Program-made: the position numbers and the translations under genes | Shown here: piece by piece, positions 3,093 through 20,246 of the stretch | Layout of the letters: each line of letters begins with the position of its first letter | Numbering within the stretch: position 1 is the first letter of the stretch | Assembly (NCBI GenBank): GCA_016934855.1 | Contig: JAFGSA010000052.1 | Coordinates: forward strand, 6,220-70,219 | DNA length: 64,000 nucleotides | Direction: 5' to 3' | Origin: Elusimicrobiota bacterium | GTDB taxonomy: Bacteria; CG03; SLGR01; JAFGSA01 | Notes under the pieces: model-generated | The model's input: only the letters and a program-made list of their open reading frames with translations | The model's database searches: none | Told to the model about the DNA's origin: nothing

Positions 3093-5285
3093 TCATTTTC
3101 CTTTTTTCGCGCATATTGCTATATCGAGCATCAGGTTGAGCGCGTCGCTGTCTTTGATATCGCCCTGGGAAAGTATCTCGAAAGGCATCGAAGCCTTATC
3201 CATGGCCTTGCTGATATTATCCCGGAATTCCTTTATATCCACTTCAGAGTCTTTCCCGGGCTCCATGCACATGGCTATATCTATATTGTTGGTCGTGGAC
3301 ATGTGCGCGATCTTCTCGTAATTTATCATCTTGGGGGAATAATAATGAACAAACAGCGGCTTCACATAGAAATTAAAGCGTTTCTGCGTGGCCAGTTTCC
3401 CCAGCCTGTCGACTATTTTAGCCGTTATTGACTCCGAGCCCTCGGGCAGGAGGTATCCCGTTCTTATTTCCCTGAGCTCTTCTTTCTCCTCGCCTATGAC
3501 CTTCGTTTCGAAATTCTCGTCTACCGGTTTTGCTTTTTTATCCTCTTTTTTCTCAAGAGGCTTTATCTTGCCTATCGGTTTGACCGGAGCTTTTTTCGCC
3601 GCGGCAGCCTTTTTCTCATCAGGCGGCGGCGGCGGTTCATCGTCAAACTTGTTTATTTTTTCGACGGGGGCGTATTCAGCGCAGTTCCGGCAGTAATACC
3701 TGTTGTATTTCTGGATATATTCCAGGGGATTGCCGCATTTCATGCATCTTCTTATATCCTCTACCGGCGGATGCATCCCCGGCGGCTGGGGAGCGTACGG
3801 CCTCACGGGCGGATAGCCTGCGGGCATGAACGGCTGCATGGGATCCGTATACATCCCGCAGCCGGTGCAGAAATATTTCTGGTACTGGGGCAGGAAAGTC
3901 AGCTGTCCGCCGCATCTCGCGCAGATATTGCCCATCTGATGAGGGGCGGGATATGGCGGCATTACAGGAGGCGCGTACGGCTGCTGCATCCCGGGCTGCC
4001 GGACCGATGCGGGCGCCGGCGCCTCTTCCTCTTCTTCCGGTTCCTCTTTTCTGGCTTTCTTCTTTTTCTTCGGCTTCTCCTCCTCTGCTTCATCTTCATC
4101 CTGGTCTTTGGGGAGATTGTTGTCTATTATGTCCTTGACGAAATCCAGCTCTATCTGGTCGTTAGAGAGCTCCAGGTAAGCCGCTATGCGGTTTATTATA
4201 CCCTCGAGCTCCCTTATATTGTCGGTCAGGCGCTCCGAAATATAGCTCGTTATCTCTTCGGATATCTCTATGCCTGCCTGTTCGGCCTTCCTTTTTATTA
4301 TGGCGCGGCGCGTCTCTATGTTTGGAGATTTAATATCGGTAGTGAGCCCCCATTCGAACCTGGATTTAAGCCTGTCTTCAAGGGTCGAGAGCTGTTTAGG
4401 GGGTTTATCCGAAGTTATTACTATCTGTTTGCCCACGGCATGCATGGCGTTGAAGATATGGAAGAACTCCTCCTGCGTGGATTCCGACTGTTCGAGGAAC
4501 TGTATGTCGTCTATAAGCAGAAGGTCTATCTGCTTGTATTTCATCCTGAGGCTGTTCACTTTTCCCTTTTCTATCGCCTCCACGACTTCGTTTACGAAAT
4601 TATCCGTCGTGACATAAGCGATAGTAAACTCGGGATACTGCTCCTTGACGAACGTGCCTATGGCCTGCATGAGGTGCGTCTTGCCGAGCCCCACGCCGCC
4701 GTAGATGAACAGCGGGTTGTAGTTCTTGCCGGGTTTTTCTGCCACGGCCTTGCACGCGGCATAGGTGAACCTGGTATTGGCTCCGACGACGAAATTATCG
4801 AATGTATATTTTTCGTTAAGGTCCATGTATACGCCGTTCCCGGATTTCTTTTCTTCGGGTTTCCCGTCCGTCTTTGCTTCTTCTTTTTCAGCGGCAGGAG
4901 GTTCGGCCTCGTCCTCTTTTTCTTCTTCGGGTCTGTTTTCCTTCGACTCGGGCTTCTCCGGCTCTACCTTTTCTTCCTCGAGCACGGGCTTTTCCTCAGT
5001 TTTCTCTTCTTCCCCGGGTTTCTCGTCTTCCTTAGGCTGGTCCTTCCGGTTCAGTATCCTGTCCAGTTCGGATGTTATCCTGTCCCTTAACTTGTCATTC
5101 AGCTCATAAAGGTATAACGACCAGTCGAAATTCTCGTTAGGCGAAGGGAAGGGCTTACTGGCGATCTTGCCCAGTTTTTTAACCAGGACATTGATGTCCT
5201 TCTCATCGCCTACGATATTAAGCTTGTAGCGGTTATCGTCTTTTGCAGTAGGTACGTGTTCGAGCGTATAGTCTTTAAATACCAT
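3093..5285 (-). CDS. DnaA-like AAA+ ATPase lacking domain IV, with two C-terminal zinc ribbons and an unknown C-terminal domain
   Basis: DnaA domain-III motifs: Walker A FIYGGVGLGKTHLMQAIG, Walker B LLLIDDIQFL, box VII DRLKSRFEWGLTTDIKSPNIETRRAII, sensor II NIRELEGIINRIA. There is no domain-IV HTH. An acidic/lysine-rich and proline-rich low-complexity stretch follows, then two C-x2-C-x14-C-x2-C ribbons (nt 3858-3923 and 3681-3746), then a roughly 140 aa unknown domain. The most likely start is MVFKDY at 5285, 21 nt after the upstream stop, rather than the 5468 ORF-track start. Confidence 0.8.
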   Translation of the reverse strand: MVFKDYTLEHVPTAKDDNRYKLNIVGDEKDINVLVKKLGKIASKPFPSPNENFDWSLYLYELNDKLRDRITSELDRILNRKDQPKEDEKPGEEEKTEEKPVLEEEKVEPEKPESKENRPEEEKEDEAEPPAAEKEEAKTDGKPEEKKSGNGVYMDLNEKYTFDNFVVGANTRFTYAACKAVAEKPGKNYNPLFIYGGVGLGKTHLMQAIGTFVKEQYPEFTIAYVTTDNFVNEVVEAIEKGKVNSLRMKYKQIDLLLIDDIQFLEQSESTQEEFFHIFNAMHAVGKQIVITSDKPPKQLSTLEDRLKSRFEWGLTTDIKSPNIETRRAIIKRKAEQAGIEISEEITSYISERLTDNIRELEGIINRIAAYLELSNDQIELDFVKDIIDNNLPKDQDEDEAEEEKPKKKKKARKEEPEEEEEAPAPASVRQPGMQQPYAPPVMPPYPAPHQMGNICARCGGQLTFLPQYQKYFCTGCGMYTDPMQPFMPAGYPPVRPYAPQPPGMHPPVEDIRRCMKCGNPLEYIQKYNRYYCRNCAEYAPVEKINKFDDEPPPPPDEKKAAAAKKAPVKPIGKIKPLEKKEDKKAKPVDENFETKVIGEEKEELREIRTGYLLPEGSESITAKIVDRLGKLATQKRFNFYVKPLFVHYYSPKMINYEKIAHMSTTNNIDIAMCMEPGKDSEVDIKEFRDNISKAMDKASMPFEILSQGDIKDSDALNLMLDIAICAKKGK

Positions 5286-5305
5286 CAGCTGCCTTTTCCG
5301 GAAAC

Positions 5306-5905
5306 TCAGCCATTCATGACCGCCTTGATCTTTTCCGATACAATACCGTATTTCTCCGCGAAACCGGACTCCAGTCCCGCCTGCCTGCCGGCCATCTGAG
5401 CGCAGGACGACTTGTCCCCTATGCCTTTCGCGTTTATATGATAGTTCATCATGCCGCCCCTGAAACATGAACCCGCAAGTTCAGACGAAATACCCACATC
5501 GGTGATTATGTTAGCGAATTTCCCGAGATCGAGCGAGCCGGCTACATCCAGCAGTTCACAGCTCTTCTCGGCTATCTCCAGCGAGACAAGCGCTGATGCC
5601 TTAAGAGCGGCCTGGAGTTTTTCCCCTCCCTGCCTCCACGCGGCGAGCACCTCTTTGAACCTTGCGCTGTCTTCTTCCGCAAGAGAAAGCATCTTCTTCT
5701 GTATACCGAGGAGCCTGCTCTCCGCAGCGAGAGCCTCCCCGTTCTGCCGGTCTTTTTTCAGCACCGCTATCCTGAGCGACATGAGCAAGAGAGCGCATGC
5801 CATCGAACCGATGACTCCCAGCGCGTTTCCGCCGCCCGGAGTACCGCTGTCCGAAGACAGCTTCTCAATATATCCGCCCAGAGAACTTTCAGTTAAACTG
5901 TCCAT
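5306..5905 (-). CDS. formiminotransferase-cyclodeaminase (FTCD_C)-like domain protein
   Basis: GTPGGGNALGVIGSMACALLLMSL matches the cyclodeaminase / methenyl-THF cyclohydrolase glycine-rich motif. SD GGAAGG precedes the ATG. Confidence 0.6.
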   Translation of the reverse strand: MDSLTESSLGGYIEKLSSDSGTPGGGNALGVIGSMACALLLMSLRIAVLKKDRQNGEALAAESRLLGIQKKMLSLAEEDSARFKEVLAAWRQGGEKLQAALKASALVSLEIAEKSCELLDVAGSLDLGKFANIITDVGISSELAGSCFRGGMMNYHINAKGIGDKSSCAQMAGRQAGLESGFAEKYGIVSEKIKAVMNG

Positions 5906-6176
5906 TTATCCTGACCTTCCCTTCTTCTACAAGGATCCTGGCCAGGGGCGTTACCAGAGCCCCCGGCGGGATATTTACCGTCATCGAGCCTTTTCTCATC
6001 TCGTCCAGGAGATACTTCTCCGTTATGAGAGCGCGCGCGGAAGCCATTTTTCCGCCGGACAGCGTTCTGCCGGTGAAGAACCCCCGTTTAAAATCATCCT
6101 TCCCGCTCTTTCCTGTCTCCGCCGCCTGTGAAAAAGCGTCTACTATCATATCGGCGATGAGTTCATCTCTTACCAT
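5889..6176 (-). CDS. small hypothetical protein (95 aa) with an amphipathic N-terminus, BMC-locus associated
   Basis: SD AAAGGGG precedes the ATG. The N-terminal helix DELIADMIVDAFSQAA resembles encapsulation peptides. The C-terminus has a GALVTPLARILVEEG motif also found in the TIM N-extension. Confidence 0.55.
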   Translation of the reverse strand: MVRDELIADMIVDAFSQAAETGKSGKDDFKRGFFTGRTLSGGKMASARALITEKYLLDEMRKGSMTVNIPPGALVTPLARILVEEGKVRINGQFN

Positions 6177-6259: not shown

Positions 6260-6559
6260 TCAGCTTTTCTTTTTCAGATGCCCCTGGGGGAGTATCATCT
6301 CGAGATCCTCATGAGGCCTCGGTATAACGTGAACGCTCACCAGTTCTCCGACCTTCTGAGCGGCCGCCGCGCCGGCTTCCACAGCCGCCCGCACAGCTCC
6401 TACTTCTCCCCTGACCATAGTCGTCACGTAACCGTGCCCTATCTTCTCGTATCCCGCGAGATCGACCTTGGCAGCCTTCACCATCGCATCGGACGCCTCT
6501 ATCATCCCTATCAGCCCGATCGTCTCGATCATTCCCAACGCAAACTTAGATTCCGCCAT
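6260..6559 (-). CDS. BMC-H shell protein (PduA/EutM-like hexamer)
   Basis: [26 protein letters not shown]...[19 protein letters not shown] is the canonical BMC (PF00936) domain. A strong AGGAGG SD precedes the ATG. Confidence 0.93.
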
Positions 6560-6578
6560 TTTATACCTCCTGTTTTCA

Positions 6579-6716
6579 GTTTTAAGTTTTAAGCTTTAAG
6601 CTGTAAGCTCAATAATCCGCGAAAATATGAAAATCCATTCATAACATCATCAGTTAATTGATTTTCTTTTCCTGTCATTTCTTTGTCTTATAACTTACAG
6701 CTTACAACTTACAACT
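6579..6716. repeat. long imperfect inverted repeat (about 23 bp arms built from TTTAAG/CTTACA heptamer-like units) flanking an AT-rich roughly 80 nt spacer, between the aldolase and BMC-H genes
   Basis: Left arm tttaagttttaagctttaagctgtaagct and right arm ttataacttacagcttacaacttacaact are reverse complements with 3 mismatches. Confidence 0.6.
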
Positions 6717-8120
6717 CTAGTACTTGCTGTCGGATTTTCCTCCCGTCACTATGGCAACCGACGCCGACGCACCTATCCTGGTCGCTCCGGCTTTCACCAT
6801 CGTATCCGCATCTTCGCCCGTGCGTATTCCGCCTGATGCTTTGACTCCCATCGCAGGGCCGACGGTCTTTCTCATCAGGCTTATATCCTCGGCAGTAGCG
6901 CCTCCCGGGCCGAAACCGGTAGATGTCTTCACGAAGTCGGCGCCGGCATTCTTTGATATCTCGGACGCTTTTACTATCTGCTCCTTGCTGAGAAGCGCGG
7001 TCTCCAGGATTACCTTGAGAATTTTGCCCCGCGTCGCTTCCCTCACGGCTTTAATGTCATCCTCCACCAGCCGGTAGTTGCCTCCCTTCAGCGCTCCCAC
7101 GTTTAGGACCATGTCTATCTCGTCGGCACCGTTCGCTATCGCGTCGCGGGCTTCTATGGCCTTTACCGTAGGCGTGGTAGCTCCCAGGGGGAAACCTATC
7201 ACGGTAGTGACCCCTACGCCTGAGCCTTTCAGCAGTTCGCTGGCCATCTTCACGTGAGTCGGGTTCACGCAGACGGTGGCAAATTTATATTTTTTTGCTT
7301 CTTCACACAGTTTCCCTATCTGTTCCTGCGTCGCGTCCGCCTTGAGATTCGTATGGTCTATGAGCCTGGCAACATCAGCGGGCACTCCCGACGTGACCTG
7401 TTTCGAAGATATCCTTGATGCGCCGGCATCGATTATGGATTTAACCTCATCCTTGCGGTTTATCACGCAAAGCCCGCACTCCGCGCATGATTCGATACCC
7501 GGACAGGCTCCCGGCCTGGCCGTTTCTCCGCCGACCGGCACCACGTTCCTCAGGTTCATGATTTCAGCAGTCTTCTTCGCCAAATTCCTGCTGAGAGTTA
7601 TCTCGGCGCCCAGGTTTTTTATCGTGTTTATATACTCGTTTATCCTGCGCATGTAAAGTGACGTGACAGGAGGCTCGGGCGCATTACAGCACAATACCGA
7701 ATCCCTGGCCATTATTATCTTCTTTCCGTACCTCATCGCCATGAGGATGAGATTGCTGGCAGCGTTATCAGGCAGCATGTTTGCTATTTTGGATGCCCCG
7801 TTCAGCGTCAGGACAGGCACTATCACGGCATCCAGTTTCTCTACGAATCCCCTGTCCCACATCTCTTTCTCCGTAGCTATGTCGCAGCCGCCGGCTTCCT
7901 GTACTTTCTGCTTGCCGATGATACGTTCGGCGGCCGGAGTCAGAAAAGCGCGGAACTTCATGCCCATGTCCCTGAGACACCTCACCTGTTTAAGCGACGT
8001 TTCCACCTCCCTGTCCCCGCCCATGAATATGAGCAGGACGTTTTTTGCGGACGCATCTTCCCCCTTAAGCCTGTTTATCGTCTCCCTGGTCACTTTCTGT
8101 ATGAAATTCTCGTCTGCCAC
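6717..8120 (-). CDS. deoC: fusion of a flavoprotein-like (HFCD/SpoVFB-like) domain with deoxyribose-phosphate aldolase (DeoC/DERA)
   Basis: The C-terminal half ([12 protein letters not shown]...VKTSTGF...ASGGIRT) is a class I DERA. The N-terminal roughly 150 aa ([10 protein letters not shown]...[21 protein letters not shown]) resembles the PF02441 flavoprotein fold, and a Cys-rich linker ([13 protein letters not shown]) joins the halves. GTG start with SD AAGGAGGA. The N-terminal amphipathic helix [13 protein letters not shown] looks like an encapsulation peptide. Confidence 0.85.
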
Positions 8121-8129
8121 GGCTCCTCC

Positions 8130-8438
8130 TTAATGATATTTTTTCGTCTTATTCCCTGCCGAAACACTGTCTACTATGCCGGCTATTATCGTCCTGGTCG
8201 GCCCCTTACCGGCCCCCATCATCTGCCGGCAGGAAGATCCCTCGTCGATTATGAGCACCGTATCGCCGGGACCCGCATCCATGCTGTGGTCTATCGCAAG
8301 CTGTACCGGACCCGACCTGGTCCCTTTCATCCCGTCTACCGGACATATTAGCATCAGCTTTTTCCCTTCGAGCGAAGGATGTTTTCTCGTTGCCCAGACG
8401 TTCCCTACAACTTTTGCTATAAACATATAAATTCGCAT
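8130..8438 (-). CDS. BMC-P vertex protein (EutN/CcmL family pentamer)
   Basis: 102 aa with the EutN_CcmL pattern IAKVVGNVWATRK...GDTVLI...GAGKG. Confidence 0.88.
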   Translation of the reverse strand: MRIYMFIAKVVGNVWATRKHPSLEGKKLMLICPVDGMKGTRSGPVQLAIDHSMDAGPGDTVLIIDEGSSCRQMMGAGKGPTRTIIAGIVDSVSAGNKTKKYH

Positions 8439-8500
8439 CTCGTGAAGCGCATTTCGTGAAGCGTGCTATTCAGATGTATTTTTCCCGGACGATTCACTTT

Positions 8501-8815
8501 TTACGTTTCACCCTTCACTAAATTTACTCCGTCTATTATGCCTATCACCGCGTTATGGCATATAGGCTCTTCCTCGAAAGCCTGGCATGCTTCTTTAGAG
8601 GAAACATAAAAGACATATTCCGAATAGCCTGCACCGACCGCGTCGAGCGCCAGCACCGATTTACCGCTGTCTTTCGGACTTATATCCTTCCCGCCGTTCA
8701 CAGCTTCCGCCACCTCTTCCCAGGTCATCGGCTTCAGCATCAGTATCTTCTTCCCTCCGGTATTAGGGTACTTGCTGGTAGCTACGACCCTGCCTATGAC
8801 CCTGCCGGCTTTCAT
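8501..8815 (-). CDS. BMC-P vertex protein (EutN/CcmL family), second paralog with an insertion
   Basis: MKAGRVIGRVVATSKYP... is the EutN/CcmL N-terminal signature. An atypical roughly 25 aa insertion is present. The stop overlaps the downstream RpiB start. Confidence 0.82.
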   Translation of the reverse strand: MKAGRVIGRVVATSKYPNTGGKKILMLKPMTWEEVAEAVNGGKDISPKDSGKSVLALDAVGAGYSEYVFYVSSKEACQAFEEEPICHNAVIGIIDGVNLVKGET

Positions 8816-9252
8816 CTTTTCTCCATGTCCGCTATAAGGTTAATCCTGCGTTCGTGGCGGCCGCCCTCGAACCCGGTCCTGAGGAAAGCGTCTACTATCT
8901 TCTTCGCCTTTGCGAAAGAGGTAAAATCTGCTCCCAGGCAGAGGATATTCGCGTTATTATGCTTCGCGGCCATGACCGCGGCTTTCGCGGTCCTCACGGT
9001 GACTCCCCTTATGCCTTTCACCTTGTTGACGGCGATGCATACTCCGAGCCCGCTCCCGCATACCGCTATTCCCTTTTCCGCCCTTTTCCCCGAAACATCC
9101 ATGGCTACTTTTTCCGCGTATACGGGGTAATCAACGGAAGCCGGTCCGTCCGTACCGTTATCTATTACTTCGTGGCCGGACGCTACCAGGAACTTCCTTA
9201 TCCTGTCCTTGAGCGCATATCCCCTGTGGTCCGATCCGACGGATATCTTCAT
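8812..9252 (-). CDS. rpiB: ribose-5-phosphate isomerase B / LacB-like sugar-phosphate isomerase (catalytic Cys retained)
   Basis: MKISVGSDHRGYALK...IAVCGSGLGVCIAVNK...GGRHERRI is the RpiB/LacAB family, with the CGSG catalytic cysteine. Confidence 0.88.
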   Translation of the reverse strand: MKISVGSDHRGYALKDRIRKFLVASGHEVIDNGTDGPASVDYPVYAEKVAMDVSGKRAEKGIAVCGSGLGVCIAVNKVKGIRGVTVRTAKAAVMAAKHNNANILCLGADFTSFAKAKKIVDAFLRTGFEGGRHERRINLIADMEKR

Positions 9253-9256
9253 ATTT

Positions 9257-9706
9257 TCACCTGTAATACCTGTCTTCGACGGATTTCACCTTGTCCAGCC
9301 TTTTCCGGTGCCTTCCCTCGCCGAAGGGAGTCTCCAGCCATTGGGTCACTATGTCACGGGCGAGAAGCGTACCCAGCATCTTGCCCCCGAGACAGAGCAC
9401 GTTGCAGTCGTCGTGCTCGGAAGCGTACGCTCCCGTAAGATGGTTATACGCCGTGACAGCCCTTATGCCCCTGACCTTGTTTGCCGTCAGGCAGACCCCC
9501 CCTCCGGTTCCGTCTATCAGTATGCCCCTGCCGTAATCTCCCCGCGATACGGCTTCGGCCACAAGCAGCGCGTAGTCGGGGTAATCGCAGGATTCTTCCG
9601 AATACGTGCCGAAATCTATCACGTTATGCCCTTTTCCCTGCAGAAATTTTTTAATATCTTCTTTTAAGGCGAAACCGCCGTGGTCCGATCCTATTACTAT
9701 ATTCAT
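9257..9706 (-). CDS. RpiB/LacA-like sugar-phosphate isomerase paralog (catalytic Cys replaced by Asp)
   Basis: MNIVIGSDHGGFALK...ILIDGTGGGVCLTANK...GEGRHRKR is the same family, but with DGTG in place of CGTG. SD AGGAG precedes the ATG. Confidence 0.85.
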   Translation of the reverse strand: MNIVIGSDHGGFALKEDIKKFLQGKGHNVIDFGTYSEESCDYPDYALLVAEAVSRGDYGRGILIDGTGGGVCLTANKVRGIRAVTAYNHLTGAYASEHDDCNVLCLGGKMLGTLLARDIVTQWLETPFGEGRHRKRLDKVKSVEDRYYR

Positions 9707-9788
9707 TTTCTGGTAACTCCTGATCCGTGTAATATGTCATGTGAAATGTGTAACGTATAAATATCAAATTCAGATGAAACCGGATGGA

Positions 9789-9810
9789 AATCTACTGCCA
9801 ATCTATTGCC
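9789..9810. repeat. tandem direct 11-mer repeat (aatctactgcc / aatctattgcc) in the 184 nt intra-operon gap between BMC-T and the RpiB pair
   Basis: Two adjacent 11-mers differ by one base; read directly from the sequence. Confidence 0.5.
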
Positions 9811-9890
9811 AGAATAACAATCTTCTGCAAATTGAAAATAATTTCTAAGCATGAAATTTCCCTGCACTTCGCATATTACAACTTATACAA

Positions 9891-10439
9891 TCACAGCACG
9901 CTCTTCCGCAGGTCTTTATGCGGACTCGGGATTATGACCCTTCTTATGAGTATCCCTTCTTCTTTTATCGAACCGCACCCCGCGTTCACCGCCGACCGGA
10001 CGCTGGCGACATCCCCGGTCATCGTAACATACGCTTTTCCGCCGAGAGCGTTTGCCAGCCTCACGTCTATGAGCCTGATATCGGCTGCCTTCGCCGCGCT
10101 GTCAGCGGCTATTATGCACGACGCGACCGAAAACGTTTCTATGATGCCCAGCGCCCCGATCTCCGAGACGTCAGACGTGCCCCTGATAGCAGGAACAAGC
10201 TGGTCATGCACGTTCTTTATTATCAGTTTATCGACCAGCGCGTCTTCTGCCAGGTTCAGGCCGCTTTTCAGAGAACTCTCCACATCGGCCGTCGAACCGG
10301 TTATAAGGACTATGAACTTGCCCGGGCAGACGGAATGGGCTTCCACCAGTTCGCTGCCAGCAGTTTTCAAAAGGGCATCGGTGACCTCAAACCCTTTGGC
10401 CACACTGCATAATTCTATCAATCCTATCGCGTTGCGCAT
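9891..10439 (-). CDS. BMC-T shell protein (tandem BMC-domain, PduT-like pseudohexamer)
   Basis: Two BMC domains (IGLIELCSVAKG... and IGALGIIETFSVAS...). The likely start is MRNAIGLIEL at 10439, 10 nt after the PduS stop, with a GGAG SD. Confidence 0.85.
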   Translation of the reverse strand: MRNAIGLIELCSVAKGFEVTDALLKTAGSELVEAHSVCPGKFIVLITGSTADVESSLKSGLNLAEDALVDKLIIKNVHDQLVPAIRGTSDVSEIGALGIIETFSVASCIIAADSAAKAADIRLIDVRLANALGGKAYVTMTGDVASVRSAVNAGCGSIKEEGILIRRVIIPSPHKDLRKSVL

Positions 10440-10449
10440 ATTTTGCTCC

Positions 10450-11766
10450 TCAGCCGGATATCTCGATATACTCACTGCTAAAGCCCTTCACGGTGCCGCT
10501 TATGCTGGAGTGGACCGCCGCGCCGAGCTTATCTGCGGGTATCCCGGCCAGCAGGTCTCCCTTTTTCACCCTGTCGCCCTCACTTACTACGGGACTTGCC
10601 GGTGTCCCTATATGCTGGCTGAGAGGTATTCTGACTTTTCCGGTATCCACGGTCTTGACCCTGATATCGTGCATATCGTATGAATCTATATCAAGCCGGG
10701 CCATAAGCCTGTCCGTATTGACTCTTCTGAATTCCCTTTCCGGATGCGCCTTGAGATCCGAAAGCGAATGGGGATTCTTTATCCCTTTCTCCGCGAGTTC
10801 CTTCTTCGTCTTCCTGAGCATGTCCCGGGGGGACAGATCAAGGGGGCACGCGTACATATTGCATAACCCGCACTCGCTGCACAGGTACGCGTTCGTAAGA
10901 TGCACCTGATCGCCGCCGATAAAAAAGTTCCTCATGATCATGTGCGGCGAGAGGTTGTGTCCCAGCAGGTTCCTTGGGCATACTATAGTGCAGTCGAAAC
11001 ACTGATCACAGGTGGATTTGGCCCTTCTGGCCATGGCCTCGAAACCGGCACTGTGCTTCGCCACAAGAGGATGATCGGGCTTCAGCACTATCAGTCCTCC
11101 GCAGAGCTTCGTTATACTGAAGGATCTCTCCACCACCTTGCCCATCATGGGACCGCCGGCTATCACGGCATAATCTTTCAGCAGAGGTACGGCCCTGTCT
11201 ATAAGTTCTCCCGCGGATATGCCCACGGGCACCTCCGCGATATACGGTTCTTCGACCTCACCGGCGACTGTTACCCACCTGGTTACCACCGGGGTATCGC
11301 TTTCCACCGCAGCATTTATATTCACAAGAGTGTTTACATTTATCACGACCGCACCGACGCTAAGAGGTATGCCTCCTTCCGGGATGATCCTCCCGGTTAT
11401 GTTATATACCAGCTCGAACTCGTCTCCGGCGGGGTAATAGTTATCCAGGAGCGCTACCCTGACGGATTTATCGCGGGCGGCTGCCTTCCTGACAGATTCC
11501 GCAGCTTCCGGATACTTTTTTTTCAGCGCGATAAAGACGTTTTTCGCCCCCGTTGTTTTTTTCACGTGCCCCAGACCCTGCATTATCTCGGCGGCACGGT
11601 TTTCCATCAGATACCTGTCCGTACTCAGCAGAGGCTCGCACTCGGCTCCGTTGGCTATCACGGTATCGACGGAGGCCGCTATCTTGACATGCGCAGGGAA
11701 TCCGCCCCCGCCTGCGCCTACGACTCCCGCTCTTCTGACTCTTTCGATAATATCCTTTTTCTCCAT
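10450..11766 (-). CDS. pduS: PduS/RnfC-like NAD(P)H-binding Fe-S flavoprotein (BMC cofactor-recycling oxidoreductase)
   Basis: N-terminal GAGGGGFP (Complex1_51K/SLBB region), two 4Fe-4S motifs (CDQCFDCTIVCP and CSECGLCNMYACP), and a C-terminal RnfC_N-like barrel segment PLSQHIGTPASPVVSEGDRVKKGDLLAG. Confidence 0.85.
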   Translation of the reverse strand: MEKKDIIERVRRAGVVGAGGGGFPAHVKIAASVDTVIANGAECEPLLSTDRYLMENRAAEIMQGLGHVKKTTGAKNVFIALKKKYPEAAESVRKAAARDKSVRVALLDNYYPAGDEFELVYNITGRIIPEGGIPLSVGAVVINVNTLVNINAAVESDTPVVTRWVTVAGEVEEPYIAEVPVGISAGELIDRAVPLLKDYAVIAGGPMMGKVVERSFSITKLCGGLIVLKPDHPLVAKHSAGFEAMARRAKSTCDQCFDCTIVCPRNLLGHNLSPHMIMRNFFIGGDQVHLTNAYLCSECGLCNMYACPLDLSPRDMLRKTKKELAEKGIKNPHSLSDLKAHPEREFRRVNTDRLMARLDIDSYDMHDIRVKTVDTGKVRIPLSQHIGTPASPVVSEGDRVKKGDLLAGIPADKLGAAVHSSISGTVKGFSSEYIEISG

Positions 11767-11811
11767 CCTATGATATCAATGATCTGGGTCTCGCCGGCTG
11801 TCTGTCCCGCG

Positions 11812-13242
11812 TCATACTATCCTGAAATAGTCCACAAGGGTGCAGCGCAGCGGGCGGGTGAATGTCTTCGCGCTTACCAGCCCGTCACCCGTAGGCGTGG
11901 CTATGGAAAGCGATGCGAACCCTTCTCCCATTCCGAGCCCCATGTAAGACGGGCCGTTTTTTACGAATATGGAGCATGCCGCGGCATAGGCCATCTTCGT
12001 CAGCCTGTCCACGTTCAGTGAATGCATCACGGCAGTGTGCCCGTTGCCTCCCTCCATCTCCACGGCAAGCTGTATAGTCCTGTCGATGGAACCGGTCCTT
12101 GCAAACGGGAGTATCGGCATGAGCTGCTCGGTCCACATAAAATCGTGTTTTTCGTCGACGAGGCCCCACAGCAGCCTTACATCTTCCCGCAGATCGATAC
12201 CCAGCGCGTTCTTCGCAATAAAAGAAGCGTTCCTGCCTACATACTCGCGGTTCAGCACGGGTTCCCTGCAGCCGGCACCGCCTTTTACTATCGCGGCAGA
12301 CGCGAGCCTGTCCATCTGTTCCGGCGACAGTTCGTGAACCCTGGGATCTTTTCTCATTCTCTCCAGCACAGCCTCGGCCGCGCCGTCTGCCAGAAGGACT
12401 TCTTTTTCCGCCGTGCACAGTATGCCGTTATCGAAACTGGCCCCCCTTATTATCGAATCCACCGCTTTTTCGAAATCGGCGGTTTCGTCGACAACTACCG
12501 GAGGGTTCCCGGGCCCGGCGGCGATGACTCTCTTACTGCTTTTCATCGCTGCCGCGACTACCCCCGGGCCTCCGGTCACAAGAAGAATCCTTATATCAGG
12601 ATGAGTAAACAGGGTCTGTGCTCCCTCGATGCTGGGGGTTTTCATCGCGGTTATCAGCCCCCTAGGGCCGCCGCTCGCCGCTATGGCGTCTGAAAGGATC
12701 TGCATAGTATACTGGGAGACCTCCCTGGCAGCGGGATGCGGGGCGAATACCACGGAATTGCCCGCCGCTATTATGCTTATAGAATTATTTATTATCGTAG
12801 ACGGAGGATTGGTCGAGGGAGTAACGGCTCCTATGATCCCGTAAGGCGCCCTTTCCACGAGAGTCAGCCCGTTGTCCCCGGTGAAAGCTTCGGGACGCAG
12901 ATCTTCGACACCCGGCGTTTTTTCCGCGGCCAGGGTGTTCTTCAGCACTTTGTCTTCCCACCGGCCCATCCCGGTCTCCCTGCTTGCCATCTTCGCAAGC
13001 GTCTGAGCTTCTTTAAGGGAAACACGGCGCATCGCATCAATCAGTCTCTTCCTGGTCTCAAGATCCGTATCCCTGAGCTTTCTCTGCGCTTCCTTCGCGG
13101 CCAGGATCGCCTCTTCCATCGTCTGGAAAAGTACCCCGTCACCCGAGGAGGCGGCAGGGCCGTATGATACGCCCTTCTCCTTCTCCATCCTTGATATTAT
13201 CTCTCTTACCACGTCTGATATCTGCTTCTCGTCTACATTCAT
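11812..13242 (-). CDS. CoA-acylating aldehyde dehydrogenase (PduP/EutE-like) with an N-terminal encapsulation peptide
   Basis: Aldehyde dehydrogenase fold with the catalytic-Cys region ILCTAEKE. The N-terminal amphipathic helix ISDVVREIISRM is followed by a linker. The ORF-track start at 13257 is TTG; the ATG at 13242 follows the SD GAGAGG. Confidence 0.85.
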   Translation of the reverse strand: MNVDEKQISDVVREIISRMEKEKGVSYGPAASSGDGVLFQTMEEAILAAKEAQRKLRDTDLETRKRLIDAMRRVSLKEAQTLAKMASRETGMGRWEDKVLKNTLAAEKTPGVEDLRPEAFTGDNGLTLVERAPYGIIGAVTPSTNPPSTIINNSISIIAAGNSVVFAPHPAAREVSQYTMQILSDAIAASGGPRGLITAMKTPSIEGAQTLFTHPDIRILLVTGGPGVVAAAMKSSKRVIAAGPGNPPVVVDETADFEKAVDSIIRGASFDNGILCTAEKEVLLADGAAEAVLERMRKDPRVHELSPEQMDRLASAAIVKGGAGCREPVLNREYVGRNASFIAKNALGIDLREDVRLLWGLVDEKHDFMWTEQLMPILPFARTGSIDRTIQLAVEMEGGNGHTAVMHSLNVDRLTKMAYAAACSIFVKNGPSYMGLGMGEGFASLSIATPTGDGLVSAKTFTRPLRCTLVDYFRIV

Positions 13243-13301
13243 TCTCATACCTCTCAAAGCTTGATACGGGTCCGCTTCCGGTATTCGCCGTGGATCGGCG
13301 G

Positions 13302-13595
13302 CTACTTGGTTTTTCTGAAGATAACCTTCCCTTCTTTCTCTATGTAATCCACTATTCCCATTACCGTGCAGTCTACCGGCCTGTTCTCGGTGGCATCCGT
13401 CATCCTGGCGGATGACCCCTTGACGAACAGGACTACCTCCCCCTCTCCGGCTCCCACTGAATCGATCCCCACCTGCGGTGCCGAAGTAGGCTTGAGATTA
13501 TCGTCTACGGGCTGTACCAGGAGAAGTTTCCTCCCCTGGATTTTTTCATCCTTTACGGTGCAGACCACGTTTCCTGTTATTATTCCGAATTCCAT
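13302..13595 (-). CDS. BMC-P vertex protein (EutN/CcmL family), third paralog
   Basis: MEFGIITGNVVCTVK...GEVVLFVKGSSAR is the EutN_CcmL pattern. Confidence 0.88.
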   Translation of the reverse strand: MEFGIITGNVVCTVKDEKIQGRKLLLVQPVDDNLKPTSAPQVGIDSVGAGEGEVVLFVKGSSARMTDATENRPVDCTVMGIVDYIEKEGKVIFRKTK

Positions 13596-13620
13596 GCTTG
13601 TTCTCCTTTAAGACTGACGC

Positions 13621-13917
13621 TCATTTTACAGGTCTTATGGGAAGCAGTTCCTCCAGATCCCGGAAAGGATATGGGATGACATGGGCGCTCATCACTTTCC
13701 CCACCCGGTTAGCCGCGCTGCAGGCCGCATCTACGGCCGCCTGGCAGTCCGCCACGGAACCCCTGACCAGCACCGTCACTATCCCGTCTCCGGTTTTCCT
13801 GTAACCGGCTATCTGGACCTTCGCCGTTTTCAACATGACATCGGCCGCTTCCACCATGGCAGTCAGTCCCATGGTCTCGATCATGCCGAGGGCTGTCATG
13901 TCCCTGTCAATATCCAT
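13621..13917 (-). CDS. BMC-H shell protein (PduA/EutM-like hexamer)
   Basis: ALGMIETMGLTAMVEAADVMLKTAKV...VTVLVRGSVADCQAAVDAA is the BMC domain. An alternative start at 13899 (MTALGMIET) is plausible. Confidence 0.9.
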   Translation of the reverse strand: MDIDRDMTALGMIETMGLTAMVEAADVMLKTAKVQIAGYRKTGDGIVTVLVRGSVADCQAAVDAACSAANRVGKVMSAHVIPYPFRDLEELLPIRPVK

Positions 13918-13923
13918 AACGCT

Positions 13924-14541
13924 TTAACATATAAAAACCTTATCGCCGTTTTTCAGATCACACGAATTGGCCTCGTCCGTATCTATATGACACTCGAGCC
14001 TGTATTTATCGCTCACACGCACCAGCACGTTTTCGAATACGACCGACCTGGATCCGGCTGTCCGGATGCGGACCTCCTGCTTGTCTGCGAGATTGAATTC
14101 TTCGGCGTCCGCGGGGGTCATATGAATATGCCTTCTGGCTACGATCACTCCCTCTTTTATCTGCAGGGATCCCTTAGGCCCGATAAACCTGGCCCCGCCG
14201 GAGCTCTTTATATCCCCGGATTCCCTGACCGGGACTTCTATCCCGATCCTGTAGCTGTCGGTCCTGGATATCTCGGCCTGGGTTATCTTTCTCGCGGGGC
14301 CGAGTACCCTTACGTTCTTGAGCGTGCCCCTGGGTCCGAGTATATCTATCGTCTCCCGCGCAGCGTATTCGCCGGGCTGCACCAGGTCCCTCAGTTTGCG
14401 CAATTCGTATCCGCTCCCGAAAAGCGCCTCTATGGCTTCCCGGGTCAGATGCACGTGCCTGTTGGAGATATTGCAGATGACAGGTTTATCCATCCTCCCG
14501 AGTCTCTTAACAACTTCTCCTGCGATCTTAGATATGTCCAT
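13924..14541 (-). CDS. pduL: phosphate acyltransferase PduL (PTAC) with an N-terminal amphipathic helix
   Basis: Two PduL repeats, NISNRHVHLT...GPRG and ARRHIHMTPADAEEF...ECHIDTDEAN. The N-terminal helix is ISKIAGEVVKRLGRM. Confidence 0.9.
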   Translation of the reverse strand: MDISKIAGEVVKRLGRMDKPVICNISNRHVHLTREAIEALFGSGYELRKLRDLVQPGEYAARETIDILGPRGTLKNVRVLGPARKITQAEISRTDSYRIGIEVPVRESGDIKSSGGARFIGPKGSLQIKEGVIVARRHIHMTPADAEEFNLADKQEVRIRTAGSRSVVFENVLVRVSDKYRLECHIDTDEANSCDLKNGDKVFIC

Positions 14542-14623
14542 ATCAGCCGCTTAATACGTAACGCGTTATATGTAAAGGGAGAAATAATCTATAAGCCGCC
14601 TGCTGCCTCATTATTCTCCCCGG

Positions 14624-15520
14624 TCAACCCCTGAATTTTACTATGCTTGCAAATGAACCGGCCTCAAGACTGGCCCCGCCGACCAGACCTCCGTCTACGT
14701 TCTCCTGCTTCATTATGTCCGAGATGTTATCCGGTTTTATGCTCCCTCCGTATAGGATCCTGATATTCTGGGCGAGTTCTTCCGTGAACATCTCCGAGAG
14801 GGTATTCCTTATAAACTTGTGCGCTTCTTCGGCCTGTGCGGGAGTCGCCGTCTTTCCGGTACCTATCGCCCAAACGGGTTCATATGCTATGGTCAGCGCT
14901 TCCTTTTCATCTTCACTTAGGTCGGCCAGCCCGCCGGAGAGCTGTTTCTTAAGAACTTCGAACGTCTTTCCCTTCTCCCTTTCCTGGAGCGACTCGCCTA
15001 TGCATACTATGGGCTTCAATCCTTCTTTCACGGCGAACTTCAGCTTTTTATTGACTGTCCCGTCCGTGCACCCGAAATACTGCCTTCTCTCGGAATGCCC
15101 TATTATGACCCACTCGCATCCGCATTCCCTGAGCATCGGCGGAGATATCTCCCCCGTGTAAGCGCCGTTCTTTTCCGGATACATGTTCTGCGCGCCCAGG
15201 GCGATGTTGGTCCCCTTCAGAAGTTCGCCTGCCAGGTTCAGCGCGGTATAGGGAGGCGCAACCATTATATCTACGTCGGTTACACCGGCGACCTTGTCTT
15301 TAAATGCCTTTATGAATGCAACGGTCTCGCTGCCGGTCTTATTCATCTTCCAGTTTCCAGCCATCAATGGTCTTCTCATCAGTTCCTCCGTTATCTCGAT
15401 ACCATGGGTATCCGCCGCTTCCCTGGCCATAGGAGTGACAAGCGTCCCCTTCGTCAGGGATACCCTCCTTTTTCCGCTCCTTATTGCTGACATTATGTCA
15501 ACATATTTGTAAATTCCCAT
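14624..15520 (-). CDS. tpiA: triosephosphate isomerase with a roughly 48 aa N-terminal extension
   Basis: The core MAGNWKMN...IAYEPVWAIGTGKTATPAQAEE...GGSIKPDN is TIM. The extension MGIYKYVDIMSAIRSGKRRVSLTKGTLVTPMAREAADTHGIEITEEL precedes it. The start codon abuts a predicted promoter. Confidence 0.88.
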   Translation of the reverse strand: MGIYKYVDIMSAIRSGKRRVSLTKGTLVTPMAREAADTHGIEITEELMRRPLMAGNWKMNKTGSETVAFIKAFKDKVAGVTDVDIMVAPPYTALNLAGELLKGTNIALGAQNMYPEKNGAYTGEISPPMLRECGCEWVIIGHSERRQYFGCTDGTVNKKLKFAVKEGLKPIVCIGESLQEREKGKTFEVLKKQLSGGLADLSEDEKEALTIAYEPVWAIGTGKTATPAQAEEAHKFIRNTLSEMFTEELAQNIRILYGGSIKPDNISDIMKQENVDGGLVGGASLEAGSFASIVKFRG

Positions 15521-15592: not shown

Positions 15593-16693
15593 TCAGTTGA
15601 AACCCATGACCCTGTTGCGCCCCTGTTCTTTGGCCATATACAGCCGGCTGTCTGCCATATTGATCAGATCATCGAAAGTTTCCATATTATCGGAATATTC
15701 GGCGACTCCTATTGTGACCGTCATGCCGTAATCGCACCGGTTATGCGTAAAAACCGTTTCTTCGATGTTCTTCCTGAGCCTTTCCGCCAGTACGGACGCT
15801 TTCCTGCCGGCCGTCTCCGGCATCATGACCACGAATTCGTCGCCGCCGTACCTGGCGCACAGGTCGGCCGCCCTGGTGCTCTGGAGTATCAGCTTAGATA
15901 TGTGTATGAGCGCCTGGTCGCCTACCTGGTGCCTGTTGGTATCGTTGAAATCCTTAAAATTGTCTATGTCGATAAAAACAAGCGACAGAGCACGCCCGTA
16001 CCTTTTTGCCTTCTCGAATTCCTTGTGCATGTGCCGGAGGAAATATCTCTTTATGTACAAACCTGTCAGGCCGTCTGTAATAGCCAGTTCGTACATCCTT
16101 GCATTGTTTATGGAGACAGCTGCATGGGACGCTATTATGGACATAAGCCGCTCATCGTTCCTTATAAACTGTTCCCCGGTGATCTTGGAATCCAGGTTGA
16201 CGACTCCCAGGAGCTCACCCTTGAATATCAGGGGAAGAGAAAGAATGGTCTCCTTCGGCAAGGCATCATCCGGGAATATCTCCTTGTAGAACCTGTTTTC
16301 CGTCGTGTCGTTTACCAGAACTGGTTTTCTGGTATACGCCACTCTGCCCGCGATACCTTCTCCTATCTTCAACTTCACATTCTCTACGGCCCTCGGGCTT
16401 AGCCCCAGGGATTCCCTTATCCGCAGGATGCCTTCCTTCCTGTCATAAAGCATTATAGAACCTTTTTTTACTTTGCCAGCTTTCACGAACGCTCCCATGA
16501 TTGCGGGAAGCAGCTCGTTCATCTCGAGATGCGAGGACATGTCGCTAGAGAGCTTCTGCAGCAGTTTCAGGTCATGGACAGCCTGACGGAGAAATCCGGT
16601 CCTGTTCCTCAGCCTGAAATAATTCTTCAGCAGGAATAATATTCCTGAAACAATTGCCAGTATTAATACGGAACAGAAGATCCGGCCGGTCAC
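15593..16693 (-). CDS. membrane-anchored GAF-GGDEF diguanylate cyclase
   Basis: N-terminal TM segment, a GAF-like region, and a GGDEF domain with an intact RYGGDEF active site. The start overlaps the upstream permease stop by 4 nt. Confidence 0.85.
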   Translation of the reverse strand: MTGRIFCSVLILAIVSGILFLLKNYFRLRNRTGFLRQAVHDLKLLQKLSSDMSSHLEMNELLPAIMGAFVKAGKVKKGSIMLYDRKEGILRIRESLGLSPRAVENVKLKIGEGIAGRVAYTRKPVLVNDTTENRFYKEIFPDDALPKETILSLPLIFKGELLGVVNLDSKITGEQFIRNDERLMSIIASHAAVSINNARMYELAITDGLTGLYIKRYFLRHMHKEFEKAKRYGRALSLVFIDIDNFKDFNDTNRHQVGDQALIHISKLILQSTRAADLCARYGGDEFVVMMPETAGRKASVLAERLRKNIEETVFTHNRCDYGMTVTIGVAEYSDNMETFDDLINMADSRLYMAKEQGRNRVMGFN

Positions 16694-17586
16694 AGGCTGA
16701 GCTCCTCCGGGTAGGGCTTACCCACGGCTGCCGGCGGTTCGGATCTCCCTATAAGCCCGGAAAGCACTATTATAGTCAGCAGGTATGGTATGGACTGGAT
16801 GAACTGGCTGGGTATGTTTACTCCCATAGTCTGGACATGTATCTGTATGCTCTCCGCAAGGCCGAATATCAGCGCCGCCCCGGTCGCTCCCAGAGGTGTC
16901 CACTTGCCGAATATCATGGCTGCCAGCGCGATAAAACCCCTGCCGCTGGACATATTGGATGTGAACTGCGACTGCTGCATTGCGAGCCATGCGCCTGCCA
17001 GGCCCGCCAATGCTCCGCTTATCGCGACCCCGGAGTATCTCATCAGCCATACGTTTATTCCGAGACTGTCCGCCGCCGCCGGATTTTCCCCGCACGCCCT
17101 GAGACGCAGTCCGAAAGGAGTCTTGAAGAGGATTACATGCGCCAGGACCACGATGAAAACAGTTATGACTATCACCGGGCTTATGCCGCCGATCACAGGA
17201 AAAGTAATAAGCTTCAACGGTATTATCCTCGCGGAATTCGATGAACTTCCGAAAACAAGAATAAGGAAGAATTTTGTTATGCCTACAGCGAAGATATTGA
17301 TCGCTACTCCGCTTACTATATGATTCACCTTGTACCTTATGCAGCTTACGGCGTGGATGACGGAAGTGATTATCCCGCCGGTCACTCCCGCGATAAGACC
17401 GAGCCACGGATTCCCCAGGTAATATGTTCCCACTACCGAACAGAAAGCGCCGTTCAGCATTATCCCTTCCAGCCCTATATTTATAACCCCCGAACTCTCC
17501 GAAAAGACGCCGCCCACGGCCGCCAGTATGTAAGGGACGGATATCCTGACAGTCTGCAGTAAAATATTCAGGACGAAATCCGTCAC
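16690..17586 (-). CDS. ABC transporter permease (nucleoside/simple-sugar type, BMP-system)
   Basis: 298 aa polytopic permease; its start is coupled to the upstream permease stop. Confidence 0.8.
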   Translation of the reverse strand: MTDFVLNILLQTVRISVPYILAAVGGVFSESSGVINIGLEGIMLNGAFCSVVGTYYLGNPWLGLIAGVTGGIITSVIHAVSCIRYKVNHIVSGVAINIFAVGITKFFLILVFGSSSNSARIIPLKLITFPVIGGISPVIVITVFIVVLAHVILFKTPFGLRLRACGENPAAADSLGINVWLMRYSGVAISGALAGLAGAWLAMQQSQFTSNMSSGRGFIALAAMIFGKWTPLGATGAALIFGLAESIQIHVQTMGVNIPSQFIQSIPYLLTIIVLSGLIGRSEPPAAVGKPYPEELSL

Positions 17587-20236: not shown

Positions 20237-20246
20237 CTTTTAAATT

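Follow-up and report, generated by a model that had tools for sequence, protein, structure and literature searches.

Few bacterial organelles are as widespread as sugar-phosphate-utilising (SPU) bacterial microcompartments (BMCs), which are now also known from Asgard archaea and for which a role in the catabolism of deoxyribose-5-phosphate (dR5P) has been proposed (PMC4207490, PMC8217296, PMC11585597). The single deoxyribose-phosphate aldolase (DERA) of this class that has been studied biochemically, SPU6 of Chloroflexi bacterium GWB2_54_36, is a dimer and is active in the cleavage of dR5P (Dwyer, Sutter and Kerfeld 2024, PMC11585597). A preprint on Hodarchaeales has described another layout, termed 'uncommon in BMC', in which an encapsulation peptide (EP), a PF02441-like domain and DERA are joined in one 'Flav+DERA' protein (PMC12747264). 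PF02441 proteins have otherwise been listed since 2014 as unexplained accessories of microcompartment loci (PMC4207490, PMC11275729), and outside microcompartments the fusion of an N-terminal HFCD domain (trimeric) to a C-terminal dimerising enzyme is known from CoaBC (Dfp; PDB 6TGV), which forms a tetrahedral dodecamer; all solved HFCD proteins are trimers or dodecamers (PMC7794376). Here we analyse a gene for a fusion of this kind (Flav-DERA) in a stretch of 64,000 nucleotides from contig JAFGSA010000052.1 of an Elusimicrobiota bacterium (GCA_016934855.1, positions 6,220 to 70,219; hereafter the window). The explanation that we favour, and hold to be reasonably likely, is that the protein is the signature DERA of an SPU compartment, equipped with an EP, an FMN (flavin mononucleotide)-binding and oligomerising HFCD-like module and a metal-binding Cys motif.

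Judged by its sequence and surroundings, the gene encodes the signature DERA of an SPU microcompartment in an Elusimicrobia metagenome-assembled genome (MAG), and this locus context bears out an earlier reading of the DNA (the original prediction), which had called the protein the signature enzyme of a microcompartment. The operon runs in the order TIM, PduL, BMC-H, BMC-P, aldehyde dehydrogenase (AldDH), MNdh/PduS, BMC-T, RpiB, RpiB, BMC-P, BMC-P, DERA, BMC-H, an open reading frame (ORF) of 95 aa and an FTCD_C-like gene, and the Pfam matches within 6260-15520 comprise two BMC-H, three BMC-P, one BMC-T, AldDH, two RpiB, PduL, TIM and MNdh (Table 1). The Hodarchaeales loci resemble the window in the order RpiB - P - P - DERA, together with MNdh, BMC-T(SE), AldDH and phosphotransacylase (PTAC), and their proteins in the succession of EP, PF02441-like domain and DERA at 44-48% identity (44% for the DERA of locus L001). 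They differ from it in a citrate synthase-PTAC fusion, and their proteins have no Cys motif, carrying 'YTIGTAGK..HGKSQ' in its place, and a longer EP linker. One of the homologues that we retrieved (P0076, locus L001) comes from an archaeal genome in which such a citrate synthase-PTAC fusion and eukaryote-like genes are found nearby, and thus represents the Hodarchaeales microcompartment. The order RpiB - P - P - DERA is kept in loci L001 and L086, and a BMC-H gene stands between both P genes in L002 and L085. SPU6 shares with the window protein an amphipathic helix and a short hairpin extension, an adjacent ribose-5-phosphate isomerase (RPI) and intact catalytic residues, and its 'LVEIITREVL' helix and 'AGASRL' element are homologous to those found here; unlike the window it has no flavoprotein domain (the extension is ~70 aa), no MNdh and a Cys spacing of Cx3Cx4Cx3C. 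The SPU6 paper mentions neither cysteines nor a flavoprotein domain and describes the region only as two low-confidence beta-strands (PMC11585597).

The ORF opens with GTG (8118-8120, minus strand), a start borne out by the homologues, whose N-termini likewise open with M-D-E-x-L-I-x-K-I-T; together with the ribosome-binding sequence ahead of it (Table 1), this agrees with the GTG start behind a strong Shine-Dalgarno sequence that had been proposed. Pfam recognises two domains, PF02441 Flavoprotein, which covers residues 27-138 with E 5e-7 and 29.9 bits (gathering cut-off 22.7), and PF01791 DeoC, which covers residues 253-451. Pfam, NCBIfam and fold search agree on the two-domain layout of the original prediction, a flavoprotein N-domain followed by a class I DERA. 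These elements are already known: the identical protein (P0001) is deposited at NCBI as 'MAG: deoxyribose-phosphate aldolase [Elusimicrobia bacterium]', both Pfam domains are in the pre-computed annotation, and the fusion is in the Hodarchaeales preprint (PMC12747264). That two adjacent genes were merged by a frameshift or a chimeric contig might be considered for a protein whose source is a MAG and whose deposited name gives DERA only. However, the 1404 nt of the ORF run in a single frame without stop codon or frame change, and our searches returned more than 100 independent full-length homologues of the same architecture (44-70% identity, 463-522 aa) that come from NCBI, JGI, ENA and Logan assemblies and from several phyla and Asgard archaea, the bacterial ones in assemblies labelled Elusimicrobia, Polyangia, Riflebacteria and Bacteroidales. 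On the basis that all of these share the fusion, we rejected an assembly or annotation artefact, to which we give practically no credence.

Residues 250-467 classify as a canonical class I DERA, the 'classic' enzyme of the original prediction. The TIGR00126 deoC equivalog of NCBIfam matches residues 250-458 with 293.4 bits (cut-off 117.3), and over its whole length the domain can be aligned to solved DERAs (E 2e-81 against PDB sequences). The motifs ADEIDMV (D336), FVKTSTGF (K398) and GVKASGG (K427), which are common to solved DERAs, are intact and invariant in 110 homologues, and Y467 is the terminal residue of the domain; in our own reading these motifs correspond to D102, K167 and K201 of E. 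coli DERA (numbered after PMC11585597). Ahead of the barrel, the AlphaFold2 model places a helix at residues 218-231, followed by an 'AGASRI' element with G233 and R236. In a comparison of N-terminal extensions, for which we used the ordinary DERAs that a locus search with the full-length alignment had mainly returned, both the helix and the element were present in all BMC-associated DERAs and absent from those of Bacillus, Paenibacillus and Streptococcus, which have no N-terminal extension and start directly at the barrel.

AlphaFold2 models were computed from a family alignment of 110 sequences, as a single chain, for residues 1-250 (mean predicted local distance difference test score, pLDDT, 87.6) and for the full length. 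Residues 27-187 are modelled as a Rossmann-like alpha/beta domain at pLDDT >90, with strands at 27-32, 55-60, 98-103, 134-138 and 173-175. Foldseek comparison of the N-terminal model with the PDB gave 75 matches at E <= 1e-3, and all 50 of those listed have the HFCD/UbiX fold; AtHal3 phosphopantothenoylcysteine (PPC) decarboxylase, UbiX, TvaF, CoaBC and DmrB stand at the top (E 2e-8 to 1e-6), EpiD-like LanD enzymes are also among the matches listed, and identity to solved members is 12-18%. Similarly, a sequence profile of the N-domain retrieved TvaF, SpoVFB/DpaB, CoaBC, EpiD and UbiX from PDB sequences. A single-sequence phmmer search with residues 1-250 of the same PDB sequences gave nothing meaningful (AP-2 beta, E 0.25), and the HFCD relationship is visible only by family profile and fold search. 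The original prediction had proposed an HFCD/SpoVFB-like fold and had made this depend on flavoprotein-fold hits; the structural matches listed, the Pfam score above threshold and the profile matches that include SpoVFB/DpaB now provide them. Likewise, the PASANT-like block to which it had pointed proved to be the most conserved stretch of the family and aligns with the PASANT-helix region of TvaF, DpaB and CoaC.

With PF02441 above threshold, PPC decarboxylases and UbiX as the best fold matches and weak matches to TIGR00521 and TIGR02852, the N-domain could be thought of as an active HFCD enzyme, be it a PPC or peptidyl-cysteine decarboxylase, a UbiX-type prenyltransferase or a DpaB-like subunit. 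Yet the TIGR00521 match (26.6 bits) lies far below its NCBIfam cut-off of 219.7, and the domain is only 12-18% identical to any solved member. The column of the catalytic His (H of 'APHVRI' in TvaF and of 'QHVRI' in CoaC) holds W/D/R in the query and is variable in the family, with no conserved His, and the PXMNXXMW clamp, which we take to be the substrate-binding motif of HFCD decarboxylases, is replaced by A-R-D-S-x-x-C-C (family consensus ARDSIxCC). In the samples examined, moreover, the family was seen only in microcompartment loci. Because both the catalytic His and the clamp are missing, the domain is by its motifs no cysteine or PPC decarboxylase, and we rejected an active decarboxylase; HFCD enzyme activity of any of these kinds is very improbable. 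By contrast, the positions that we presume to be the FMN contacts and cofactor signature of HFCD proteins are kept in the 110 Flav-DERAs (G34-G35, S/T61, A64, T105-x-N107, K111 and D118).

The clamp position is also where the vicinal cysteines C144-C145 (7686-7691, minus strand) of the 'ARDSIxCC' segment sit. They are kept in about 70% and 50% of the Flav-DERAs, respectively, including the Hodarchaeales proteins that have no Cys motif, and a family of stand-alone flavoproteins described below has P-D in their place.

Two described groups of HFCD proteins help to place the domain. CoaBC matches it in fold and sequence and has the same arrangement of an N-terminal HFCD domain and a C-terminal dimerising enzyme, but CoaC possesses the His and the clamp needed for catalysis and substrate binding, and CoaBC carries out two consecutive steps of one pathway; in the window protein, an HFCD-like domain without catalytic residues is joined by a long disordered connector to a DERA without a known flavin step. 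The archaeoflavoprotein AfpA and the dihydromethanopterin reductase DmrB share the fold and use it to transfer electrons or hydride, not to decarboxylate. DmrB (4mwg) appeared in the fold search, and TIGR02699 and TIGR02700 weakly match the stand-alone relatives, but the similarity is weak and sub-threshold, and these proteins are not microcompartment-associated and carry no EP.

The N-terminal part of the fusion recurs in microcompartments independently of DERA. A phmmer search with residues 23-190 over 1.84 G representatives returned 259 relatives, mostly non-DERA proteins of 250-290 aa that are built of an EP-like helix, a linker, the flavoprotein-like domain and a C-motif of ~40 aa ('IITPLARDxAxExGIEI'). 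Profile comparison (hhalign) of such stand-alone BMC flavoproteins with the N-part of the Flav-DERAs gave a probability of 100% (E 1e-50) over 195 columns that include the helix, and 134 stand-alone representatives carry a near-canonical 'P-V-L-T-x-N-T-A-A-K-I-A'. One stand-alone flavoprotein lies between PduL and PduN of a PDU operon, which is the PduM position, and another ahead of BMC-P in a glycyl-radical-enzyme (GRM) locus. We therefore regard helix and flavoprotein domain, by their homology, as one pre-existing microcompartment module that also exists stand-alone. Stand-alone PF02441 flavoproteins, TIGR02536 'eut_hyp' proteins and PduM-position proteins all resemble the window protein in having an EP and an HFCD-like module inside BMC operons, but they end in the C-motif of ~40 aa rather than in a Cys motif and DERA; the C-motif, absent from the DERA fusion, is found in the window on the separate 95-aa ORF and at the N-terminus of TIM, and the N-terminus of EutQ weakly resembles it.

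Sister loci hold a degenerate form of the same module. At the PduM position, L001, L002, L085 and L086 encode unannotated proteins (202-254 aa) that are homologous to it (hhalign 98.8%, E 7.5e-17) but retain only K111 and D118 of the signature, the GG loop, T61/A64 and N107 being lost; together with the stand-alone proteins these match NCBIfam TIGR02536 'ethanolamine utilization protein' (weakly, E 0.003). Retention of the signature in the Flav-DERA and stand-alone families and its loss in these paralogues suggest selection on a ligand site, the ligand being most simply FMN. As the signature positions are kept here and lost there, we consider FMN binding the likeliest function and hold that the flavoprotein-like domain probably still binds this cofactor.

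The same paralogues open the way to a different view, namely that the domain is a cofactor-free structural adaptor that links cargo to the core or shell like PduM and TIGR02536-type proteins and multimerises DERA, with no redox role. Homology to PduM-position SPU proteins devoid of GG, T61/A64 and N107 favours such an adaptor, as do the presence of the stand-alone family in the PduM slot of a PDU locus and the C-terminal motif that this family shares with PduM, an EP-tagged, low-abundance structural protein that is needed for core-shell coupling (PMC12108088). DERA chemistry, moreover, needs no redox cofactor. On the other hand, a near-canonical HFCD signature ((T/S)GG, S/T61, A64, P-V-L-T-x-N-T-A-A-K and D118) is kept over 25-50% identity outside the degenerate paralogues, the DERA fusion is without the PduM-type C-motif, and enterobacterial PduM itself matches only in the last 52 columns, the C-motif (93.8%). 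We accordingly regard a purely structural adaptor as possible but rather unlikely.

Two assignments were dropped: the body of enterobacterial PduM as a truncated flavoprotein-like protein is unsupported, its N-terminal match being weak (46%) with only the C-motif aligning, and an E. coli match first taken for a pdu locus belongs to a dha glycerol-dehydratase plasmid. A separate observation concerns P0196, a protein of 477 aa in which an EP, a PduL phosphotransacylase, the flavoprotein-like domain and the C-motif are fused; the module has therefore been joined to more than one metabolosome core enzyme.

The N-terminal helix was predicted from the outset to be an amphipathic helix of the encapsulation type, and a helix that is not amphipathic was named as counter-evidence. 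AlphaFold2 models a helix at residues 2-21, and the hydrophobic moment of residues 5-19 is 0.56, which compares with 0.47, 0.55 and 0.76 for the known encapsulation peptides of PduP, EutC and PduD, respectively; homology and context point the same way. In the locus, PduL (ISKIAGEVVKRLGR), AldDH (ISDVVREIISRMEK) and DERA share one N-terminal pattern, and an 'L(V/I)ExITREVLxxL' helix also heads flav-less SPU DERAs of Chloroflexota, Acidimicrobiia, Gemmatimonadota and others. The linker that follows the helix varies in length and sequence among homologues (0-60 aa) and comprises only ~5 residues (22-26) in the query. Dwyer et al. have interpreted this helix of SPU DERAs as their encapsulation peptide (PMC11585597), and EP-dependent recruitment to shells has been reported for the Hodarchaeales 'Flav+DERA' (PMC12747264). 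From homology, and from these experiments on the Hodarchaeales homologue, we infer that the helix is an encapsulation peptide.

A segment with four cysteines in CxxCxxC-type spacing follows the flavoprotein-like domain and precedes the aldolase; in its CxECGLC form (CAECGLC) it recalls the CSECGLC motif of MNdh from the same locus. The clade of the window protein carries CxxCGxC plus an upstream Cys, often as 'CP', in a ferredoxin half-site-like arrangement, and G216 is nearly invariant in the family. Flav-less SPU DERAs also carry a Cys motif, between the helix and the 'AGAxRI' element, and its spacing is Cx3Cx4Cx3C in Anaerolineae, Cx7Cx2Cx2C in Sumerlaeota and CPTFC in Pyrinomonadaceae. Since DERAs without the flavoprotein-like domain possess it, the motif is not a product of the fusion: the original prediction was right that a Cys-rich segment exists, but this segment is no mere fusion linker and belongs to the SPU-DERA extension. 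From its pattern we think that the four-Cys motif probably binds a metal, as a [4Fe-4S] cluster or Zn.

Other Cys arrangements were encountered in related loci. In L007 and L010 (Riflebacteria / Ca. Ozemobacter), where only BMC-P genes were detected within +-8 kb, the part of the Flav-DERAs that connects the flavoprotein-like domain to the aldolase holds two Cys clusters, 'CTTCIGAGGCTSC' and 'CLQDQCSRSYGSCAASC'. The flav-less DERAs of the Elusimicrobia loci L006 and L011 show a third pre-DERA variant with a Cys/His pattern, 'EHTGG(A)(N/D)CP(S/H)C ... VCHP'; these loci have BMC-T and AldDH (L006 also PduL and TIM), with no MNdh in range. A segment of the 'EHTGG...VCHP' type is also present on full-length Flav-DERA homologues, e.g. 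P0073, P0089 and P0094.

We compared the related loci that we retrieved for the presence of MNdh. In this sample, all five with a Flav-DERA and a visible main operon (L001, L002, L005, L085 and L086) have MNdh, as has the window; in the ten SPU loci whose DERA is flav-less and whose AldDH is in range, it was absent within +-8 kb in every case. L084 is a split locus and stands outside this count. This co-occurrence fits a redox partnership, and PF02441 proteins have been suggested before as possible electron acceptors in MNdh loci (PMC11275729). A flavin in the domain and a [4Fe-4S] cluster on the Cys motif might then form a luminal electron relay with MNdh and BMC-T(SE) that disposes of NADH electrons or reduces a luminal client. 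Besides the MNdh counts and the earlier proposal, such a relay can draw on the CPGK Fe-S motif of the window BMC-T, on the mirrored CAECGLC and CSECGLC motifs, and on the existence of HFCD-fold electron carriers, given the weak matches of AfpA/DmrB-type families to the stand-alone relatives and DmrB in the fold search. Conversely, domain and Cys motif are independent of each other, as Hodarchaeales proteins have the domain without cysteines and SPU6 has cysteines without domain or MNdh; the EP-tagged protein would be luminal, but the missing acceptor of MNdh/T(SE) is expected outside the shell; the Cys segment is without a Fer4 signature; and the MNdh correlation may be phylogenetic. We judge the relay to be unlikely, and a role of the flavoprotein-like domain as luminal redox partner of MNdh/BMC-T(SE), taken by itself, to be no more than tentative.

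Several observations weigh against our explanation of the protein as an encapsulated DERA with an FMN-binding, oligomerising module and a metal site, in which cofactor, metal and oligomer are all deduced from sequence. For the domain, the existence of degenerate paralogues with the same fold but without the signature means that a purely structural use of this fold is possible in microcompartments. In addition, the beta1-loop reads GGDRE where HFCD enzymes have small residues, and neither D36 nor R37 is conserved, which makes the geometry of phosphate binding uncertain. The full-length model has a predicted template modelling score (pTM) of only 0.51, with the relative placement of the domains undefined in the model. 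As regards the Cys motif, it is modelled at pLDDT 50-70, its spacing varies among relatives (Cx5Cx2Cx2C, Cx3Cx4Cx3C, CPxxC), it is absent from Hodarchaeales and Acidimicrobiia variants, and a Pfam scan of five variants of the segment found no Fer4 or zinc-ribbon family at E <= 10; a pattern of this kind is more in keeping with a dispensable, structural site for a metal than with a redox centre that the enzyme must have. For the helix, shuffling the residues of this short segment gave a p of only about 0.09, which is weak for amphipathicity by itself, and the case for an encapsulation peptide therefore rests on homology and context and not on the moment alone. Finally, the Flav-DERA loci are few and of one conserved gene order, such that their co-occurrence with MNdh may reflect shared ancestry, and stand-alone PF02441 proteins occur without MNdh both in L088 and on record (PMC11275729).

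Taking both sides together, we favour the encapsulated, FMN-binding DERA as the working explanation, in which the N-terminal helix would take the aldolase into the cargo core and the class I DERA domain would act on dR5P as the signature enzyme of the compartment, with AldDH, PduL, TIM and MNdh/BMC-T(SE) processing its products and recycling cofactors. Support for the function as an aldolase and for targeting is good. By analogy with solved HFCD proteins, the flavoprotein-like domain is rather likely to form trimers or dodecamers, and a trimeric or dodecameric module on a dimeric DERA, held by a long flexible connector, would create a multivalent enzyme that helps to build the cargo core. The description given by the original prediction is thus correct in all structural points, and its suggestion on function (flavin or nucleotide binding, or an assembly module), a reasonable one, is narrowed but not settled. 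A broader and more speculative proposal, which we consider doubtful, is that the unit of EP and HFCD-like domain is a general metabolosome component, a luminal FMN protein that organises the core through trimer multivalency and handles redox reactions or cofactors. Such a unit would have descended from a CoaC/DpaB-like flavoenzyme, been fused repeatedly to cargo (to DERA, and to PduL in P0196) and decayed to structural TIGR02536/PduM-position proteins in some lineages; in the SPU aldolase its neighbour would be a metal (Fe-S) site that SPU DERAs conserve in general and that has so far escaped notice.

In the literature that we searched we found no account of the equivalence of the fused unit with the stand-alone EP-tagged flavoproteins (PduM position) and the degenerate TIGR02536-like paralogues, of the Cys motif as a widespread feature of SPU DERA extensions, or of the co-occurrence of Flav-DERA with MNdh. 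We regard module identity, spread of the Cys motif and MNdh co-occurrence as leads, not demonstrations. The roles of the module and the Cys motif would show how a cargo core is built and how redox cofactors are managed inside shells, and the function of the module would explain the many PF02441 flavoproteins of microcompartment loci. A trimerising, EP-tagged scaffold domain would also be useful in engineering.

Table 1. Features of the Flav-DERA gene and of the surrounding SPU operon (positions in the window; residues are those of the Flav-DERA protein)
Feature	Position	Strand	Details
Whole ORF: EP, flavoprotein-like domain, Cys motif, DERA	6717..8120	-	467 aa; stop codon 6717-6719; from ORF list
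Shine-Dalgarno AGGAGG	8125-8130	-	4 nt before GTG; overlaps TAA of upstream BMC-P gene; from sequence
Amphipathic helix, putative encapsulation peptide, residues 2-21	8058..8117	-	AlphaFold2 helix; homology
HFCD/UbiX-fold flavoprotein-like domain (PF02441), residues 27-187	7560..8042	-	Pfam, AlphaFold2, Foldseek, profile search, hhalign
PASANT-like block, residues 99-119	7764..7826	-	T105, L106, N107, K111; D118 invariant
Disordered, poorly conserved connector, residues 188-205	7506..7559	-	pLDDT <50 for residues 193-205; variable in homologues
C206-x5-C212-x2-C215-G-x-C218, putative metal or Fe-S site, residues 206-218	7467..7505	-	four-Cys motif in most homologues
SPU-DERA-specific helix and 'AGASRI' element, residues 219-249	7374..7466	-	G233, R236 invariant; precedes barrel
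Class I DERA TIM barrel (predicted), residues 250-467	6720..7373	-	D336, Schiff-base K398, K427, C-terminal Y467
Two BMC-P (EutN/CcmL) genes directly upstream of DERA	8130-8438, 8501-8815	-	Pfam
Two RpiB paralogues	8812-9252 (Cys type), 9257-9706 (Asp type)	-	Pfam; motifs VCGSG, IDGTG
BMC-T(SE), CPGK motif	9891-10475	-	Pfam, translation; Fe-S motif of electron-transfer type
MNdh/PduS homologue	10450-11766	-	two ferredoxin motifs, one CSECGLC
AldDH, BMC-P, BMC-H, PduL, TIM: remaining SPU operon	11812..15520	-	Pfam; N-terminal extensions
BMC-H	6260-6559	-	Pfam
95-aa ORF	5889-6176	-	without Pfam family; EP-like helix (RDELIADMIVDAFSQA), linker, motif 'LITEKYLLDEMRKGSMTVNIPPGALVTPLARILVEEGKVRI'

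Beside the operon, at 15593-22827 (minus strand), lie genes for a GGDEF/GAF protein, a PnrA/Bmp-type nucleoside ABC transporter (binding protein, two permeases and ATPase) and a 5'-nucleotidase, and the transporter and nucleotidase are consistent with nucleoside uptake that feeds dR5P to the compartment. Within the operon, neither of the two RpiB paralogues (VCGSG with Cys and IDGTG with Asp) has an N-terminal extension; all SPU RPIs carry the Asp and an EP with a long linker according to Dwyer et al. (PMC11585597). The N-terminal extension of TIM (14624-15520, minus strand; residues 1-45) is no amphipathic EP but a 'TLVTPMAREAADTHGIEI' motif of the PduM-C/EutQ-N type, and its presence hints that the locus uses targeting or adaptor elements of two kinds. 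The motif of the 95-aa ORF is of the same type and can be aligned to the C-terminal ends of PduM, TIGR02536-like proteins and the stand-alone BMC flavoproteins, such that this ORF resembles a PduM-type adaptor without the middle domain; a counterpart of 104 aa occupies the same position in L084.

The end of the 95-aa ORF is overlapped by an FTCD_C / methenyl-tetrahydrofolate cyclohydrolase-like gene (5306-5905, minus strand), which is apparently co-transcribed with the BMC genes; in L004, another Elusimicrobia locus, a gene of this type (171 bits) likewise stands next to those for DERA and BMC-H. After the BMC genes follows a gene for a protein of 791 aa (3093-5468, minus strand) that carries an AAA+ domain of the DnaA/Hda type and has weak matches of the zinc-ribbon/FYVE-like kind, and in the Elusimicrobia locus L084 a DnaA-like gene for 621 aa (13359-15224) is found at the same relative position. 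A class I/II aminotransferase gene lies further on in both the window and L084.

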